From Candidatus Anderseniibacteriota bacterium (GTDB lineage: Bacteria > Patescibacteriota > JAUYIX01): DNA of 64,000 bases. Location: assembly GCA_046350855.1 (NCBI GenBank), contig JAXLZM010000002.1, forward strand, positions 14,103 through 78,102, read 5' to 3'. Below, piece by piece: positions 3,985-45,644 of the stretch. Numbering within the stretch: position 1 is the first letter of the stretch; each line of letters starts with the position of its first letter. The notes under the pieces are model-generated. The model was not told where the DNA came from. It saw only the letters and a program-made list of their open reading frames with translations, and ran no database searches. A program made the position numbers and the translations under genes.

Positions 3985-5139
3985 ATGGCAACGCTCAAGG
4001 CGCGGGCCGAGCAACTTGTCTCGCTCGCCGATATCAAAATCAATGGCTCCCGTCCCTGGGACCTCCAGGTGCACAACGAGGCACTCTACGCCCGCATTTT
4101 TCGCCAGGGTTCCTTGGGCTTGGGTGAGGCCTACATGGATGGCTGGTGGGACGCGCCCCAGCTCGATCAATTTTTTTACAAAGTCTTTAGGGCCAAATTA
4201 GAAGACAAAGTGCAGCCGGCTACCATGGTGCTGCCGTTGCTCAAATCGTTTTTGGTCAACCAGCAAAATCGCACTACCTCACGCGTGTCGGTAGAACACT
4301 ACAACCTTGGCAACGACTTTTACGCTAAAATGCTCGACCGGCGCATGGCCTACACCTGTGCCTATTTTGGTCAGACCGAGTCACAGGGTGAACCACTCCC
4401 CGGTCGTACCAGTAAAACGCTCGACCAAGCCCAAGAAGACAAACTCGAGTTAGTCTGCAAAAAAATCGGCCTCAAGCGAGGCGAAAAAGTCCTCGACCTT
4501 GGTTGCGGCTGGGGCACCTTTGCCAAGTACGCCGCCGAAAAATACGGCGCACATGTGGTCGGCTACAACATCTCGACCGAGCAGGTGGCCTACGCTAAAC
4601 AAACTACCCAAGGCCTCCCCGTTGAGATTAAGCTCCAAGATTACCGCGACGCCACCGGCACGTACGATAAAGTCGTCTCCATTGGACTGGCCGAACATAT
4701 CGGCTACAAAAACTATCGTGGCTTTTTTGAGGTGATCAATCGCACGCTCAAGAACGACGGATTGGCACTGGTACACACCATCGGTAATCGTCGCTCGGTG
4801 ACCGGTACCGATCCTTGGCTCGCCACGTATATCTTTCCCAACTCAATGCTGCCGTCCATCAAGCAGCTCGGCAAAGCCATGGAAGGTCTCTTTATTATGG
4901 AGGACTGGCACAACTTTGGCGCCGATTACGACCTGACGCTGATGGCGTGGTTCAAAAACTTTGACCGCAATTGGCCAAGTAGTAAAGGTACTCAACCACA
5001 CTTTAATGACCGCTTTTACCGCATGTGGAAGTTCTACCTGCTCAGCTGCGCCGCCCTGTTTAGAGCCCGTAAAACACAACTATGGCAGATCGTGTTGAGT
5101 AAAAACGGCGTGCTCGGCGGCTACCAGTCCGTCCGTTAA
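3985..5139 (+). CDS. cfa: Cyclopropane-fatty-acyl-phospholipid synthase family SAM-dependent methyltransferase (Cfa/UfaM/BfaB-like), 384 aa.
   Basis: SAM-binding motif VLDLGCGWGTF and overall similarity to CFA synthases (…YNISTEQVAYAK…, C-terminal FYRMWKFYLL). Confidence 0.85.
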   Translation: MATLKARAEQLVSLADIKINGSRPWDLQVHNEALYARIFRQGSLGLGEAYMDGWWDAPQLDQFFYKVFRAKLEDKVQPATMVLPLLKSFLVNQQNRTTSRVSVEHYNLGNDFYAKMLDRRMAYTCAYFGQTESQGEPLPGRTSKTLDQAQEDKLELVCKKIGLKRGEKVLDLGCGWGTFAKYAAEKYGAHVVGYNISTEQVAYAKQTTQGLPVEIKLQDYRDATGTYDKVVSIGLAEHIGYKNYRGFFEVINRTLKNDGLALVHTIGNRRSVTGTDPWLATYIFPNSMLPSIKQLGKAMEGLFIMEDWHNFGADYDLTLMAWFKNFDRNWPSSKGTQPHFNDRFYRMWKFYLLSCAALFRARKTQLWQIVLSKNGVLGGYQSVR

Positions 5140-5173: not shown

Positions 5174-6568
5174 ATGATCACCCGCGCGGTATTCGAGGCC
5201 AAAAAACAAGCGTTATTGCGCGAGTTTGTCGCGCTTGCGCCGGCAGAACAAGTGGGCTTAAGCAAAAAAACGTCCAATCTTTTTAGATATCGAGATGACT
5301 CGCGTAAGCATAAGCTCGACGTGCGTTCATTTAATAACGTGATCAGCGTCGATGCAAACGCGCTCGTTGCGGATGTCGAAGGCATGACCACCTACGAGGA
5401 TCTGGTACGTGAGACGTTGCGCTATGGACTACTCCCACCCGTCGTACCGGAGCTCAAATCTATTACGATCGGCGGCGCCGTAAGCGGCATCGGGATCGAG
5501 TCGTCCTCATGGCGATATGGTCTCGTGCACGAGACGGTCCAGGAGTGTGAAGTATTACTCGCCGACGGAACAACCGTGACTTGCACACCTACCAACGAGC
5601 ATCGCGACCTGTTTTTTGGCCTGCCTAACTCGTATGGCACGCTCGGCTATATCGTACGGCTCAAGATCAAGCTCGTGCGCACCAAACCGTTTGTGCAACT
5701 ACGTCACCTGCATTTTTCTGATCCGCAGGCTTATTTTTCTGCCGTAGCACACCTGGTCAGTGCAAAATCGCATGCGGGTGAACCGTTCGATTATATCGAC
5801 GGCACTATTTTTGAGCGCGACAATCTCTACATAACACTGGGCCGCTTTGTCGACACCATCCCATCAGACCCAGCCGGAACGACAACGAGCGACTACACCT
5901 ACCGCCAGATCTACTACAAATCGATCGCACAAAAACAAACCGACTATCTAACAACACACGATTACATCTGGCGCTGGGATACGGATTGGTTTTGGTGCTC
6001 GAGTCACTTTGGCGTGCAAAATCCCTTGATCCGTCTCTTGGTTGGTCGGCGCTTTTTGCGTTCGACCACCTACTGGAAGATCCGCCACTGGTACCAGGGT
6101 GTCAGCGCACGCAGAGCCAAGGACTCGGCAGAAAAGCTGCAAAAAGCTGAATCCGTGGTCCAGGACGTAGAAATTCCGCTCAAAAACGCTGCCGCTTTTC
6201 TTACGTTCTTCCAAAAAAAGATTGGCATCAAACCGGTTTGGATGTGTCCGCTCGTGCCCGGACCTACTGCCAGCAGGTACGAGCTCTATCGCATGGCTCC
6301 GGGCGAGCTCTACATTAACTTTGGTTTTTGGGACGTGGTCAAAAGCAAGACCGCGCATCCGGATGGGTACCGTAACAAGTTGGTTGAGGCCAAGACGGCA
6401 GAACTGGGTGGCAAAAAATCTCTGTACTCCACCGCCTACTACGACCGCGAGACATTTTGGCAACTCTATAACAAATCTGCCTATGACCTGCTCAAGAAGA
6501 AATATGATCCGGCTGGTCGCTTTACAGATCTCTACCAAAAAACGACGCAAGCGGGCCGCGCACGCTAG
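5174..6568 (+). CDS. FAD-binding oxidoreductase with a PCMH-type FAD domain, DHCR24/BfaA-like (464 aa).
   Basis: Motifs ITIGGAVSGIGIESSSWRYGLVHETV and CTPTNEHRDLFFGLPNSYGTLGYIVRLKIKL resemble the DHCR24 / FAD-linked oxidase family. Lies 35 nt downstream of the cfa-like gene on the same strand. Confidence 0.7.
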   Translation: MITRAVFEAKKQALLREFVALAPAEQVGLSKKTSNLFRYRDDSRKHKLDVRSFNNVISVDANALVADVEGMTTYEDLVRETLRYGLLPPVVPELKSITIGGAVSGIGIESSSWRYGLVHETVQECEVLLADGTTVTCTPTNEHRDLFFGLPNSYGTLGYIVRLKIKLVRTKPFVQLRHLHFSDPQAYFSAVAHLVSAKSHAGEPFDYIDGTIFERDNLYITLGRFVDTIPSDPAGTTTSDYTYRQIYYKSIAQKQTDYLTTHDYIWRWDTDWFWCSSHFGVQNPLIRLLVGRRFLRSTTYWKIRHWYQGVSARRAKDSAEKLQKAESVVQDVEIPLKNAAAFLTFFQKKIGIKPVWMCPLVPGPTASRYELYRMAPGELYINFGFWDVVKSKTAHPDGYRNKLVEAKTAELGGKKSLYSTAYYDRETFWQLYNKSAYDLLKKKYDPAGRFTDLYQKTTQAGRAR

Positions 6569-41561: not shown

Positions 41562-42617
41562 TTAGGTCAGTTTGAGTTGGGCGGTGGCGGGTGGGGTCAG
41601 GCCGAGTTGAGTATACGCTTTTTGAGTCGCCACGCGACCCCGGTGAGTGCGATCGATAAACCCTGCTTGAATGAGGTAGGGTTCGACCACGTCGAGCAGG
41701 GTGTTCTCGTCTTCGCCTAGGTTGGCAGCGATAGCGTTGAGTCCGACCGGGCCGCCGTTAAAGCGCTCGATCACCGTACGGAGAAGGGCCTGATCGAGGC
41801 TGTCTAAGCCGGCTTGGTCGACCCCCAATTGATCGAGGGCAGCCTGCGCCACGGAGTTACTGATACTCGTCTCACCCGCCACTTCCGCAAAGTCGCGCAC
41901 ACGTTTGAGGAGACGGTTGGCAATGCGCGGGGTAAGTCGTGCCCGCGCGGCCAAGATTTGGATCGCGGCTGGTTGGATCTCGATCTTAAGGATTTTGGCC
42001 GACCGTGCGATAATCTCGGCGATATCTGCCACTTGGTAAAAGTTGAGCCGGTAGCTGGCACCAAAGCGATCACGTAAGGGGCCCGAGAGCATACCTAGGC
42101 GGGTGGTCGCGCCGATGATCGTAAACTTGGGGAGGTCGAGCCGCAGCGAGCGCGCCCCAGGGCCTTTGCCGACGACCAAGTCTAAAGCATAGTCCTCCAT
42201 AGCTGGATACAGCACTTCTTCTACCGTCCGGTGCAGCCGGTGAATCTCGTCGATAAATAAAATGTCGCGTTCCTTAAGGTTGGTCAGCATGGCGGCGAGA
42301 TCGCCCTGTCGCTCGATGGCTGGCCCACTGGTCACCACCAACTGCACCCCCATCTCGGCTGCAATAATGTGCGCTAAGGTCGTTTTGCCCAACCCCGGTG
42401 GCCCCGAGAGTAAGACGTGCTCGATTGGTTCGTTGCGTTTTTTGGCCGCCGCTAAAAAGACCTGCAAGTTTTTTTTGAGGTCGGCTTGGCCGATAAATTC
42501 ACCCAGCCGTTTAGGTCGCAAGCTCAACTCCAATTTGGCCTCAGAGCGCTTAACTTGGGGCTCCGAGACCCGCTCGCTCATGACCCCCTTAGTAACGCTG
42601 GTTCGTTCGATTGCCAT
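41562..42617 (-). CDS. ruvB: Holliday junction branch migration ATPase RuvB (start at 42617 or 42581; the ORF track extends to 42680).
   Basis: Walker [19 protein letters not shown]. Sensor and arginine-finger regions. C-terminal winged helix. Confidence 0.88.
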
Positions 42618-42699
42618 AGATCCAGTATATCCGTAGTTTGGATGAACCCAAAACTTGACCCCCAGAGGCCAATCTTGCACTCTGGTCTTGTTCAGCAGG

Positions 42700-43040
42700 A
42701 CGACCGGCAGGGGTAGTGGTGCGAGGTCGTGTCCGTTTTGCGGAGCAGTTCGTTACCGTATGCCGACCGAAGCTCAGGTACATCGGTTGGTGAGTAAGGT
42801 GCCTGGTTTTTTTGGCAGTATGTGTCACGAGGGTGGCACGGAGCAAGTAGCGTCTCCGCTCCCGCAGCACCGATGGTTCACTCGCGATTTTTCGCGGGCA
42901 CCTCCGGTCGAAGGTCCTGGAGAGGAGTCTCACGCCGTTGGATGACGCCCCCCAAGGGTCTTGTCGTACCAGGGTCATTTACTGACCTACCCCCGTCATT
43001 CCAACTCCTTTGGTTGAACATTAACAATACGCCCCGTTCG
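42700..43040 (+). ncRNA. Candidate structured non-coding leader (~340 nt) immediately 5' of the reverse transcriptase gene; possible RT template or scaffold RNA (retron msr-msd-like or DRT-type ncRNA).
   Basis: No credible ORF: the frames here give Arg/Ser/Pro-rich translations and have no SD. Several local hairpins: ggtgcc...ggcac (42798..42840), tcgcga-ttttt-cgcgg (42882..42897), ggtca-tttac-tgacc (42972..42986). The RT has a strong SD but no recognisable promoter directly upstream. Confidence 0.3.
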
Positions 43041-43057
43041 CAAGTAGGAGGCACTGT

Positions 43058-44131
43058 ATGTCGATGCTGCAGCTGCCTTTGCCGGGCAGCGAAAAGTTTT
43101 TTCCTGAGACTGACTTTGATCGAGCTCGTGTTGAGCATTACGTCGGCCAGATCGAGCCGACCTTGCGACCCTGCCAGATCCAGCCAAGTGTGGTCGTGGA
43201 GATTCTCTGCAACCCAACTCCCTTTTGGAAACGCACCATAAAGGTGGACCACGTAAAGTGCAAGACGCGCATCTGCTGGTCTCCCCTGGTACAACTGCGC
43301 AAGATCCAACGAGCCTTGCTCTTGCAACTGCGATTGCCGAAAGGGTTTCCATCTATGGCGTTTGAACCTGCAGATTCGATCATCTGGAACGCGCGTTGTC
43401 ACATCGGTAACAAAGCCAGTTTGATGGTCGATCTCAAAAATGCCTACGAGTCGATCAAAACCAAGCATGTGCAGCGCTACCTCAGGCGAGAACAATACTG
43501 CAGTAAGGCCGAGGCTTGGGTGATCGCGCGGCTCATAACCTATCGAGGTCTCTTGCGTATGGGAGCGCCCATCTCCGGATGGATCTTTAACGCCATGTTG
43601 TACCGTTTTGACCAAGAGGTACTTACGGTGTTTGGAGCACCGACGATAGCGATGCGGCATGATGACGAGTCCAGTGTCAGTCTGTTCTACAAAGCTGGTA
43701 GAAAGCCGCGCCCCCACAGTCATGGGATCGTGTACACGCGCTATGCGGACAACCTCTGCATTTCTGTACCAGGTACGTGGGTGAGAGGGATCACCGAAAA
43801 CATGCTTGAAAAAGTCCTTGCACGTCATCATCTCACGCTCAACCCCGACAAAACGGTACATGGGCACAATGGTCGCTTGTTCTTTCCTGGCATTGAGCTA
43901 TCTGACAACAAGATCTATCCCAACATGGACTACCTTTCTTGGTTTGCCTATCAGTTCCACTTAAAGCAGTTACTGCCTCAGCAGCTCATGGGGCACCTCT
44001 GCTACCAGCGTATGTTTGGTGACAGCGTCTACCAGGATCTTCGGCAAGCGTTTCCGACGCCAGGAGGTGAGGACGCTTTAGCTGAACTACCGATGTACTG
44101 GCAGATGGAAGATCCGTATGAAAACTGCTGA
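43058..44131 (+). CDS. Reverse transcriptase, compact (357 aa), retron-like; no maturase, endonuclease or other fused domain.
   Basis: RBS aggagg 7 nt upstream. RT motifs: KRTIKV...SPLVQLRKIQRALLLQL (motifs 0/1, retron-type LKxIQ), NARCH (retron NAxxH), LMVDLKNAYESIK (motif A), GAPISGWIFNAMLY (motif B'), IVYTRYADNLCISV (motif C, reading Y-A-D-N rather than YxDD), LTLNPDKTV (motif D). Confidence 0.85.
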   Translation: MSMLQLPLPGSEKFFPETDFDRARVEHYVGQIEPTLRPCQIQPSVVVEILCNPTPFWKRTIKVDHVKCKTRICWSPLVQLRKIQRALLLQLRLPKGFPSMAFEPADSIIWNARCHIGNKASLMVDLKNAYESIKTKHVQRYLRREQYCSKAEAWVIARLITYRGLLRMGAPISGWIFNAMLYRFDQEVLTVFGAPTIAMRHDDESSVSLFYKAGRKPRPHSHGIVYTRYADNLCISVPGTWVRGITENMLEKVLARHHLTLNPDKTVHGHNGRLFFPGIELSDNKIYPNMDYLSWFAYQFHLKQLLPQQLMGHLCYQRMFGDSVYQDLRQAFPTPGGEDALAELPMYWQMEDPYENC

Positions 44132-44134
44132 CAA

Positions 44135-44166
44135 GCTCGATTCCTTGCGAGGGATCGAGCTTTTTT
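44135..44166 (+). terminator. Strong intrinsic terminator immediately after the RT stop codon.
   Basis: Stem gctcgat(t)cc / ggatcgagc with a 7-nt loop, followed by tttttt. Confidence 0.7.
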
Positions 44167-44202
44167 GTAGCTTCTACCTGCCACGTATAAAGGAGGCCCG
44201 AC

Positions 44203-44802
44203 GTGCCGCTCATTAAGAATATCCAGTCCTGCCTGATTAACGGTGTTCGTCTCATCGAACTCAACCTCTTTGCCGACGAGCGCGGGCACTTTGCCCTGCT
44301 GTTCTCCCGACAAGAGATGCGTAAGGCCAAGCTCAAGCCCTACCGTTTTTGCTACTTTGCCGAGTCGAGTTCTAAGCAGGGGGTCGTGCGGGCCTTTCAT
44401 ATCGCGCGCTACACCAAGTACATCCACATCACCTGGGGATGTGCCCATGCCGCGATCATGGACTGCCGGCTGTACTCCCCAACCTTTGGTCAGATCGTCA
44501 CATTTACCCTGGACGAACACAACGTCCTGATCCTGCCGCCCAATTGCGGTAACGGGTTCCAGGCCCTCACGCCGACCGTCAAGTATCTGTATGCCGCGAC
44601 CGGGTACTGGACCCCGACCGCCGAGAGAGGTGTCTCATACCAAGAGCATCGGTGGCCACTCCCCCCGATCGTTTCGGAGCGTGATCGCAACTACCTGCCT
44701 TTTGTTGAGGCCTACCGCAAAGAGATCGAGCGCCGTATGCGCTCCCGCAAGAGTACTTTGATCATCGTTCGCAAGGCTCTCAGTGAGAGTTCCGTGGCAT
44801 GA
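44203..44802 (+). CDS. RmlC-like cupin (dTDP-4-dehydrorhamnose 3,5-epimerase family), 199 aa.
   Basis: GTG start with aggagg 7 nt upstream. Motifs FADERGHF (RmlC GDERGFF), SPTFGQIVTF (RmlC SPTFGQW), LPPNCGNGFQAL, YAATGYW. Confidence 0.7.
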   Translation: MPLIKNIQSCLINGVRLIELNLFADERGHFALLFSRQEMRKAKLKPYRFCYFAESSSKQGVVRAFHIARYTKYIHITWGCAHAAIMDCRLYSPTFGQIVTFTLDEHNVLILPPNCGNGFQALTPTVKYLYAATGYWTPTAERGVSYQEHRWPLPPIVSERDRNYLPFVEAYRKEIERRMRSRKSTLIIVRKALSESSVA

Positions 44803-44805
44803 GAG

Positions 44806-44834
44806 TTGACAAAAACCCCGTATCCTGCTAGGAT
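44806..44834 (+). promoter_or_regulatory. Sigma-70-like promoter TTGACA-17-TAGGAT, with a ~220-nt leader before the next ORF.
   Basis: -35 ttgaca at 44806..44811, 17-nt spacer, -10 taggat at 44829..44834. The leader contains the hairpin cgtaggcttgccctacg. Confidence 0.55.
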
Positions 44835-45058
44835 GCGGCGTTCTTTTCTATACACAAAAGGAAACACGCGACACTTTCCCCACGTGGCACGTGCGCCTTT
44901 GTATTTCGCCGATTTGGACCCCTAAGCAATCAACGGTGGGAAAAAATAAGGATGAGGTGGCCCGTAGGCTTGCCCTACGCTCCTGCTCCCTCACCCCTTG
45001 ATTTTCTTGCTTTGCTTAGGGCTCCCAGTCGGTGATCCAGTACAAACAAGGAGCGGCC

Positions 45059-45352
45059 ATGATCAAGGACATCAACAAGATTGGTAAAGTGTTGGTCAAG
45101 CGCCAGGGCGACAAGCTGGAGATCAAGTTACTCAGCATCGACAATCGTTCGATCGACTGGGCACGTGATCCCATCGAGATCGATTCGGAGGAACAGCTCG
45201 CGCAATTTCTCCAGATCCTGGGCCTCATGCTCTACTCGAGCGAGCAGACCTTTGTGCGGACCCACGCGGACAACGGCAACACCGTCTACATCAATCGCGT
45301 GCACGCCAGGGGCTACTACAGTCCCCACGAGCTCCGCCTCATGCTAGTCTAG
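45059..45352 (+). CDS. Hypothetical small protein (97 aa).
   Basis: RBS aaggag 8 nt upstream of the ATG. Sequence MIKDINKIGKVLVKRQGDKLEIKLLSIDNRSIDWARDPIEIDSEEQLAQFLQ... Confidence 0.5.
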   Translation: MIKDINKIGKVLVKRQGDKLEIKLLSIDNRSIDWARDPIEIDSEEQLAQFLQILGLMLYSSEQTFVRTHADNGNTVYINRVHARGYYSPHELRLMLV

Positions 45353-45392
45353 ACTCTCGGACACCACGGATAACCAAGGAGGTTCCTACCGG

Positions 45393-45584
45393 ATGAACAA
45401 AGCCGACAAACTCTTCTTCGAGCACCTCAATGCCATGGAGATGGTCGTGACCGGCGAGGTCAAGGCGCTTCACGACGAACGCGGTCCCCTCATCGAGCCG
45501 CGAGTGCAGCACCTCAAGGACCAGCTCGAACACATCCACGAGCTGCGTGCCATGCGTGAGAACAAGGACTACAAGCAGACCTAA
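45393..45584 (+). CDS. Hypothetical small protein (63 aa), helical and charged.
   Basis: RBS aaggagg upstream of the ATG. Sequence MNKADKLFFEHLNAMEMVVTGEVKALHDERGPLIEPRVQHLKDQLEHIHELRAMRENKDYKQT. Confidence 0.45.
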   Translation: MNKADKLFFEHLNAMEMVVTGEVKALHDERGPLIEPRVQHLKDQLEHIHELRAMRENKDYKQT

Positions 45585-45644
45585 CGCGACATCGTCGCCA
45601 CTCTCTGTTATCGGCCCATGGCTAACCGCCCTGGGCCTTTTTCT

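Follow-up and report, generated by a model that had tools for sequence, protein, structure and literature searches.

A retron-lineage reverse transcriptase with a conserved structured leader RNA in Patescibacteria

The DNA analysed here, called the window below, is a stretch of 64,000 nucleotides from contig JAXLZM010000002.1 of a Candidatus Anderseniibacteriota bacterium. Between ruvB and the gene of an RmlC-like cupin (44203-44802) it contains a reverse transcriptase (RT) gene that is preceded by a non-coding leader and followed by a terminator; both flanking genes, as named in an initial annotation of this DNA, are confirmed by profiles. The RT is a member of the retron lineage. The window locus is not an isolated oddity, as it belongs to a coherent clade specific to bacteria of the Candidate Phyla Radiation (CPR). 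In this clade the leader is, as predicted by comparative analysis, a conserved and covarying structured RNA, specific to the RT clade and co-oriented with the RT, and the RT unit has no conserved protein partner. We lean towards the reading that the locus is an autonomous, effector-less retron-lineage unit that pairs an RT with a non-coding RNA (ncRNA). Such a single-gene module was one of three readings offered in the initial annotation, and it is now favoured, as no neighbour is conserved and a promoter and a terminator bracket the unit in many loci. The YADN variant of motif C, which had been taken for the key feature, is real but secondary.

The reverse transcriptase belongs to the retron lineage

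The RT scores 46.9 bits against the Pfam profile RVT_1 (cut-off 29.6). In the HMMER alignment to the RT of retron Ec86, YADN falls on YADD and VDLKNAYESI on the motif A sequence IDLEDFFPSL, whereas NARCH falls on NATPH, the retron NAxxH feature, and LVQLRKIQ on SRELKALQ. Thus the 357-aa open reading frame (ORF) with retron-type signatures stands as it was initially described. Equally, no additional or fused domain was detected in the RT with the Pfam, PADLOC and NCBIfam profiles.

The best PADLOC models are the retron RTs of types II-A (89 bits) and III-A (86 bits); all 25 models listed are retron RTs, the RT-Protease_XI profiles among them scoring 72-73 bits. The PADLOC matches do not exceed 89 bits and are split into two stretches. 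The NCBIfam E-values are 2.8e-27 for retron_St85, 2.9e-5 for Drt3a, 2e-3 for group II RTs and 2.5e-3 for Drt2. All 12 matches of a PDB sequence search are retron RTs. A confident AlphaFold2 model based on the family alignment (predicted local distance difference test 84, predicted template modelling score 0.81) was compared with PDB structures by Foldseek. The 16 best matches are again all retron RTs (E 1e-15 to 1e-10), followed by the G2L4 and group II RTs (1e-10 to 1e-8), DRT9 and DRT2, two defence-associated RTs (about 1e-7), and the RT of a diversity-generating retroelement, DGR (about 1e-6). Solved RT-ncRNA complexes occur among the matches. Profile, sequence and structure comparisons therefore agree that the RT is of the retron lineage. 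On the other hand, its scores are far under the curated cut-offs for individual retron types (retron_St85, 95.7 bits vs 235; Ec67, 47 vs 450; TIR-RT, 42.5 vs 600), and therefore it belongs to none of the described types.

It is hardly credible that the locus is a fragment of some other RT class, that is, of a group II intron, a DGR or an RT of the unknown group/abortive infection (UG/Abi, DRT) assemblage, and this explanation is largely refuted. The hosts would fit it: about 80% of the CPR RTs on record are DGRs (PMC8632793), and UG38 of UG/Abi class 2, a small rare group with no additional known domain, is reported from Parcubacteria and Nealsonbacteria (PMC9226505). However, the RT scores only 17 bits against the group II RT/maturase profile TIGR04416 (cut-off 300) and 17 bits against Drt2 (cut-off 390). 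No intron or other Rfam RNA was found, and the window contains no template/variable repeat pair involving the leader, also when A positions are masked. Foldseek ranks the retron RTs far above all others. The window family resembles UG38 in its CPR hosts, its small size and rarity and the absence of an added domain. However, UG38 was delimited within a set of RTs whose top profile is a UG/Abi one, and for the window RT the retron profiles lead by more than 20 orders of magnitude. The best-profile rule thus assigns it to the retron lineage, and by this rule identity with UG38 is unlikely.

A small family of CPR reverse transcriptases

A word-indexed protein search returned the RT itself and two weak matches only. 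An exhaustive HMMER search of 1.84 billion representatives gave 74 matches at E<=1e-10. The discrete RT group consists of about 45 cluster representatives of 300-400 aa (E 1e-18 to 1e-60, 32-45% identity), and generic retron RTs come next. Absolutely conserved in an alignment of 40 family members are the Asn and His of NAxxH (N111 and H115, within NARCH in the window), the Asp of motif A, the first Asp of motif C and the Gly of an xPG triplet. The latter corresponds to the retron VTG triplet: the window has FPG, F/L-P-G being the family form, with the Gly (G278) retained and the Val and Thr replaced. The C-terminal motif GHxxFLxQFG is specific to the family. Most members have their catalytic residues intact.

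All six family-level matches in reference genomes (one per GTDB species) are from Patescibacteria, namely from Parcubacteria, Saccharibacteria, Wildermuthbacteria and an unclassified Patescibacteria group bacterium. In the viral contigs of IMG/VR no family-level homolog was found, only generic retron RTs at 22-31% identity, and thus a phage origin of the RT is unlikely. The clade is sporadic in distribution, fast-evolving and, in the short term, vertically inherited. It forms a small and seemingly undescribed branch within the retron lineage, so far seen only in Patescibacteria. A search of the literature for retrons in CPR, Patescibacteria or Parcubacteria and for YADN found nothing relevant.

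The leader contains a conserved structured RNA

Two family loci have the gene order of the window and form with it a syntenic trio: L002, from a Parcubacteria metagenome-assembled genome (MAG), and L148, on a contig of 1.05 Mb. The features of the window locus are as follows; all are on the forward strand (+).

42655..42683 (+): candidate promoter of the RNA-RT unit, with -35 TTGACC (42655-42660), a 17-nt spacer and a weak -10 CACTCT (42678-42683)
42700..42730 (+): P1-like 5' hairpin, ACGACC (42700-42705) pairing with GGUCGU (42725-42730), assigned by eye
GGGG 42710-42713 (+): family motif CAGGGGUAGUGG in the P1 loop; CAGGGG is invariant across the three syntenic leaders
42731..42794 (+): lineage-specific insertion of about 65 nt between P1 and the junction, from comparison with the model alignment and with L002 and L148
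42795..42840 (+): conserved junction (CCUGG, 42802-42806) and GAGG-loop hairpin, by the covariance model R1
42821-42828 / 42833-42840 (+): stem of the GAGG hairpin, with its loop at 42829-42832, by exact scan and covariance model
42841..42986 (+): variable hairpin-rich 3' leader domain, a candidate msd-like template, from minimum free energy (MFE) folds
42987..42997 (+): conserved C-rich block CUACCCCCGUC; all three leaders of the syntenic trio have the same CCCCG
43021-43028 (+): A-rich block UUAACAAU; TAACAAT is conserved with L002
43046-43051 (+): Shine-Dalgarno box AGGAGG, 6 nt before the ATG
43058-44131 (+): RT gene, 357-aa ORF of the retron lineage without a fused domain
43742..43756 (+): motif C, Y-A-D-N-L, read in the DNA as tat gcg gac aac ctc
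44133..44168 (+): intrinsic terminator, a 13-bp stem with a 4-nt loop (44133-44162), then TTTTTT

The likeliest start of ruvB is the ATG at 42617 and not the GTG at 42680, according to the gene caller (351 aa) and to the full-length alignment with the orthologs from L002 and L148. Hence the ORF-free leader spans 42618-43057. It is indeed non-coding, as initially annotated, but its length is 440 nt and not about 370 nt. The case made in the initial annotation depended on homologs having such a region too, and in every family locus examined the RT is preceded by about 290-480 nt without a credible ORF.

The leaders of the window and L002 have discrete blocks in common, including the GAGG-loop hairpin. 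A stem of 7-8 bp closing a GAGR loop was found by exact scan in 12 of the 18 family leaders, with a chance estimate of about 0.004 per leader. RNAalifold, applied to a MAFFT alignment of nine leaders, yielded this hairpin with double compensatory changes at five of its seven pairs; from the whole-leader alignment it recovered the hairpin only, and not P1. Inspection of the leaders by hand added two further elements: the 5' stem P1 with a GGGG-W3-4-AAGG motif inside it and, ahead of the GAGR hairpin, a YGG junction.

A covariance model of this structure, R1, was built from five seed leaders with a hand-checked seed alignment (98 positions, 14 pairs). Its best match in the whole window, on both strands, is 42795-42839 (+), E=0.005. 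The specificity search covered 910 kb in 97 loci, including about 75 control loci that encode other retron-type RTs. Each of the top 13 matches falls in a family leader, upstream of the RT and on its strand, and eight of them had not been used as seeds; the first match in a control locus appears only at E 0.32. Altogether the element lies upstream of the RT and on the same strand in 14 of the 18 family loci, the window included.

The pairing of both helices is preserved by covariation. In the MAFFT alignment of the seeds, 97% of the cells are paired, compared with 24-46% when the partner column is slid, and the covariation score beats all 500 shuffles. In the 14 model-aligned leaders the corresponding values are 95% and 23-50%, with double changes at eight pairs; the hairpin is paired in 99% and P1 in 89% of the cells. 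There are 16 G.U pairs and only 6 A.C pairs, in favour of an RNA that is read on the RT strand.

The part of the leader downstream of the hairpin is less uniform. This 3' domain varies from about 80 to 230 nt among the relatives and is rich in hairpins; in the window it includes the block GUCUCCGCUC, in common with L002. Most relatives have a C-rich block 40-80 nt before the ATG, and A-rich blocks resembling UUAACAAU of the window are also present in L072, L006 and L074.

Some loci have variants of the 5' domain. In the Saccharibacteria-type leaders of L069 (753-847) and L004 (about 1200-1330) it takes, as judged by eye, the form GGAGGAGGCUAAGG with the hairpin GUCGCUCC-GUG-GGAGCGAC, where a GUG loop replaces GAGR; this variant falls under the significance threshold of R1. 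In L148, the closest intact relative, P1 and the GGGG motif are canonical, and the GAGR hairpin is replaced at 4718-4750 by a 5-bp stem (GUGCU/AGUAC) with a 21-nt loop containing GAGAG.

Rfam searches, both in the gathering and in the E-value mode, gave nothing relevant in the window leader or in ten family loci. The conserved leader RNA is thus a candidate structured RNA new to Rfam. An Rfam RT-6 match at 44771-44840 (-) was rejected as noise.

Transcription signals

A sigma-70-like promoter ends just 5' of the start of the RNA model in nine family loci and directly abuts it in five. Examples are TTGACT-17-TATAGT (L068, L005), TTGACT-16-TATAAT (L074) and TTGACT-16-TAGGAT (L148). In 10 of the 18 family loci the RT stop codon is immediately followed by a strong hairpin and a T-run. 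These signals define the family unit as promoter - RNA - RT - terminator.

At the window locus a consensus promoter scan gave no matches, in line with the initial annotation, where no obvious promoter was seen. However, the candidate TTGACC-17-CACTCT occupies the place where the relatives have near-consensus promoters. Its TTGAC is invariant in the leader alignment of the window, L002 and L148, the TTGACT-16-TAGGAT of L148 being the aligned site; the scan missed it because the -10 element is poor. We infer that it is the candidate promoter of the RNA-RT unit. The other signals of the initial annotation hold: the strong Shine-Dalgarno box is in place, and the terminator, with its 13-bp stem and a T-run (TTTTTTG), starts 2 nt past the stop codon and has a fold energy of -16.8 kcal/mol.

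Several other features overlap this region. The block 42620-42654, conserved with L002, reads on the reverse strand TTGGGT-16-TATACT with the ATG 6 nt further, which suggests that the ruvB mRNA is leaderless or has a very short leader. A scan also produced a terminator-like hairpin on the reverse strand at 42655-42672, just upstream of ruvB and overlapping the proposed -35 box of the RT unit. With 2.3 such sites expected in shuffles, this match has probably arisen by chance. An antisense ORF of 329 aa (42878-43867, reverse strand) overlaps most of the RT gene; nothing was found to mark it as a gene, and it probably results from base composition. The RT gene (region 43000-44200 in the window) has a GC content of 0.50-0.53, lower than the 0.58-0.60 of ruvB, which would fit a foreign origin or different constraints.

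Genomic neighbourhood and the search for a partner

The gene order in L002 is LTD - small ORF - bPH_2 - small ORF - RuvB - 485-nt gap - RT, and L148 has the same order plus the cupin and VanW. The identities of the L002 and L148 proteins to those of the window are, respectively, 81% and 79% for RuvB, 75% and 63% for bPH_2, 46% and 41% for LTD, 40% and 37% for the RT, and 33% and 28% for the cupin; VanW is 55% identical. Beyond this trio the RT is found among unrelated housekeeping genes, such as those for ribosomal proteins, Mur ligase, HPF, SecA, CTP synthase and M48 peptidase. An all-against-all comparison of the neighbours within 4.5 kb in 13 loci found no gene common beyond local synteny, and the gene tables of four further loci contain no conserved neighbour of the RT. 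Thus the RT unit has no conserved protein partner.

One possibility is that the locus is a conventional tripartite retron with an unrecognised effector, which could be the cupin, the small ORFs or a gene in trans; the second reading of the initial annotation was of this kind. We consider it unlikely. Indeed, all 13 described retron types have an effector (PMC7736814), and the cupin gene adjoins the RT gene in the three syntenic genomes. The cupin is as divergent as the RT, with 28-33% identity where RuvB has 79-81%; the L002 protein is extended at its N-terminus by about 30 aa. In the trio the stretch from RuvB to VanW is a small variable islet (43058-45600 in the window, 5001-9700 in L148, 5986-8600 in L002) with orphan small ORFs 3' of the cupin gene, at 45032-45352 and 45393-45584 in the window and five in L148. 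However, none of the family loci examined outside the three syntenic genomes has the cupin, and a strong terminator lies between it and the RT. It has no PADLOC match, and its profile scores are 107.8 bits for dTDP_sugar_isom and 79 bits for rmlC (cut-off 155). Even within the trio there is no conservation of the small ORFs that separate the cupin from VanW, and they have no Pfam or PADLOC match. No gene cluster is common to the non-syntenic loci. The cupin and the small ORFs were rejected as effectors on these grounds, that is, non-conservation, the terminator and the lack of a PADLOC match, and with them the adjacent effector of the initial annotation.

The asparagine in motif C

In the window Asn232 replaces the second catalytic Asp; the codons gac aac are read directly at 43748-43753, as initially annotated. 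However, the consensus of the 40 aligned family members is Y[G/A]DD, and only six have Asn at this position, namely the window RT, P0004, P0005, P0009, P0020 and P0037. The syntenic relative L002 has YADD. The Asn-bearing members are on at least five separate branches of a neighbour-joining tree, this count being approximate because the tree has long branches. All of them are full length and retain the other catalytic residues, including the motif D Lys. A minority state that occurs on several branches in otherwise intact enzymes is a recurrent tolerated variant, and YADN is therefore not a hallmark of the element.

Motif B of the window RT (43559-43579, residues 168-174) reads RMGAPISG, whereas the family has RQGAPxSP; the differences are Q168M and P174G. 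The latter is common to the window and L002, and the Gln-to-Met replacement is common to the window and P0009, which also has YxDN. The equivalent motif B change in HIV-1 RT, Q151M, is compatible with activity.

The same change of the second motif C Asp was engineered in the RT of the eukaryotic long terminal repeat retrotransposon Ty1. This mutant, D211N, retains polymerase activity in vitro, with kpol decreased 223-fold and a marked preference for Mn2+ (PMC2148107), and loses transposition in vivo, whereas the Asn of the CPR clade is natural and repeated. Asn at this position probably leaves a slower polymerase, possibly preferring Mn2+, and not a dead enzyme. Altered metal chemistry, the third reading of the initial annotation, is made plausible by Ty1 D211N (PMC2148107), but applies to some members of the family only.

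Proposed mechanism and alternatives

In the autonomous unit that we favour, a weak promoter would give rise to a transcript with a structured RNA of about 370 nt followed by the RT gene and ending at the terminator. The RT would recognise the conserved 5' domain of its own leader, with the P1 stem, the GGGG motif and the GAGR hairpin, and would copy part of the variable 3' domain into cDNA. The output would be the cDNA, alone or in a complex with the RT and the RNA, rather than a toxin encoded nearby. The recognition, cDNA and output steps are proposed by analogy with retrons and single-gene RT-ncRNA systems. On the same analogy, the polarity of the leader, conserved at the 5' and variable at the 3' end, would match that from msr to msd. 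The activity of the unit is most likely conflict-related; this role is proposed because the distribution is sporadic and the evolution fast.

A broader formulation, which we put forward only tentatively, is that the clade forms a new class of the retron lineage. These would be autonomous CPR RT-ncRNA systems with cDNA or a ribonucleoprotein as the functional output, as in DRT2 and DRT9 but independently evolved, with a new RNA fold, possibly non-canonical priming, and a repeatedly tolerated Asn in motif C.

A number of observations weigh against the autonomous unit. Firstly, the RNA of the window is not fully typical. P1 was assigned there by eye only, as R1 aligned just the junction and the hairpin. 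Where the window has the insertion of about 65 nt, P1 and the junction are only about 0-15 nt apart in the relatives. R1 has no significant match in L003, L004, L069 and L075. No common fold of the 3' domain was established among the relatives from MFE folds. The folding energy of the whole leader is unremarkable compared with shuffles (z -0.47 on the forward and -0.93 on the reverse strand), and so the several leader hairpins of the initial annotation get no support from energy, but the comparative analysis does support structure.

Secondly, the leader does not display the canonical retron layout, and no more than about 50 nt are enclosed by P1. A long-range GGGG/CCCC duplex resembling a1/a2 was considered; its energies are no better than those of shuffled targets (z -1.9 to +0.7). 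In several loci the C-rich strand pairs locally, and not with GGGG. There is a single apparent compensatory change, seen by eye (GGGG/CCCC in L005, GGAG/CUCC in L068), and the duplex is not claimed.

Thirdly, the window RT departs from the family consensus at three active-site positions (Q168M, P174G, D232N), and its -10 element is weak. Retroviral RTs are inactivated by the same Asp-to-Asn change (PMC2148107). The RT of the syntenic L002 (MAG contig JAZDNR010000042) has a single in-frame TAA at 6376-6378 in place of the motif A Tyr (aac gct taa; 'DLTNA*'), the remaining frame being intact; the gene may have decayed recently, or the stop codon may be an artefact of sequencing or assembly. Given these deviations and the L002 stop codon, the window lineage could be losing activity. 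Finally, an effector encoded elsewhere in the genome is possible.

The window element might even be a decaying relic, with a dead or dying RT and a leader conserved by recent common descent only. The active-site replacements, the weak -10, the leader insertion, the L002 nonsense codon and an RT that is only 37-40% identical where RuvB is about 80% identical could all be so explained. However, the ORF is full length and intact in both the window and L148, with the motif A Asp, the first motif C Asp, the motif D Lys and other invariant family residues kept. The hairpin, the GGGG motif, the Shine-Dalgarno box and the terminator are all retained. YxDN recurs in five other intact lineages, and an Asp-to-Asn change is compatible with activity in Ty1 RT (PMC2148107). 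Such decay is therefore improbable, and the window copy may be a weakened member of the clade.

Another explanation is that the leader is only a cis-regulatory 5' untranslated region, acting on translation or stability of the RT, and that the RT acts on other nucleic acids. This would agree with the failure to demonstrate either a canonical msr/msd layout or an a1/a2 duplex, and the C-rich and A-rich blocks near the Shine-Dalgarno box could be regulatory; the conserved domain is at the 5' end of the leader, distant from the ATG. However, in characterised retrons and single-gene RT-ncRNA systems an adjacent structured RNA is the template or scaffold of the RT (PMC7736814), and the conserved 5' and variable 3' parts of the leader fit the order from msr to msd. 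A purely regulatory leader is thus quite unlikely, and the autonomous RT-ncRNA unit remains our preferred reading.

Comparison with known systems

The clade is closest to the retrons of types II-A and III-A (e.g. Retron-Eco1/Ec86), which provide its best profile, sequence and structure matches. In both, NAxxH lies between RT2 and RT3, the Gly of the RT7 triplet is kept, and the protein has about 320-360 aa without a fused domain. In both, a structured RNA lies directly upstream on the same strand and is co-transcribed with the RT, as predicted here from transcription signals. However, the clade has F/L-P-G in place of VTG, the GHxxFLxQFG motif, no effector gene and CPR hosts, and its RNA is different, with P1, the GGGG motif and the GAGR hairpin and no demonstrable a1/a2 duplex.

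In DRT2 (UG2) and DRT9 (UG28) the cDNA product itself is the effector. They resemble the window clade in having one RT gene with an adjacent structured ncRNA and no protein effector. The likeness to these systems suggested in the initial annotation holds for this architecture only, as the RT is not of their lineage (Drt2, 17 bits vs 390; Drt3a, 23.6 vs 200; Foldseek about 1e-7 vs 1e-15). The DRT2 and DRT9 RTs are larger, with C-terminal extensions, and their ncRNAs are unrelated to that of the window.

The retrons of types VIII and XI are non-canonical, having retron-lineage RTs without a recognisable ncRNA (PMC7736814). Proteases or esterases are partnered with or fused to these RTs. The window clade is the opposite case, with a clear ncRNA and no partner.

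Implications

Retrons are currently understood as tripartite, consisting of an RT, an ncRNA and an effector. If the proposed reading is true, a toxin might be dispensable for retron-type RT-RNA pairs, or might act in trans. A compact RT-RNA pair of about 1.5 kb with a new RNA scaffold could be of use in tools for the production of RT-DNA. The recurrent natural replacement of the second motif C Asp by Asn would provide a natural series for probing the relaxation of metal ligands in RT active sites. The element would also add a candidate structured RNA to those absent from Rfam. Finally, a retron-lineage clade in CPR would broaden the picture of CPR RTs as being almost only of the DGR type (PMC8632793).

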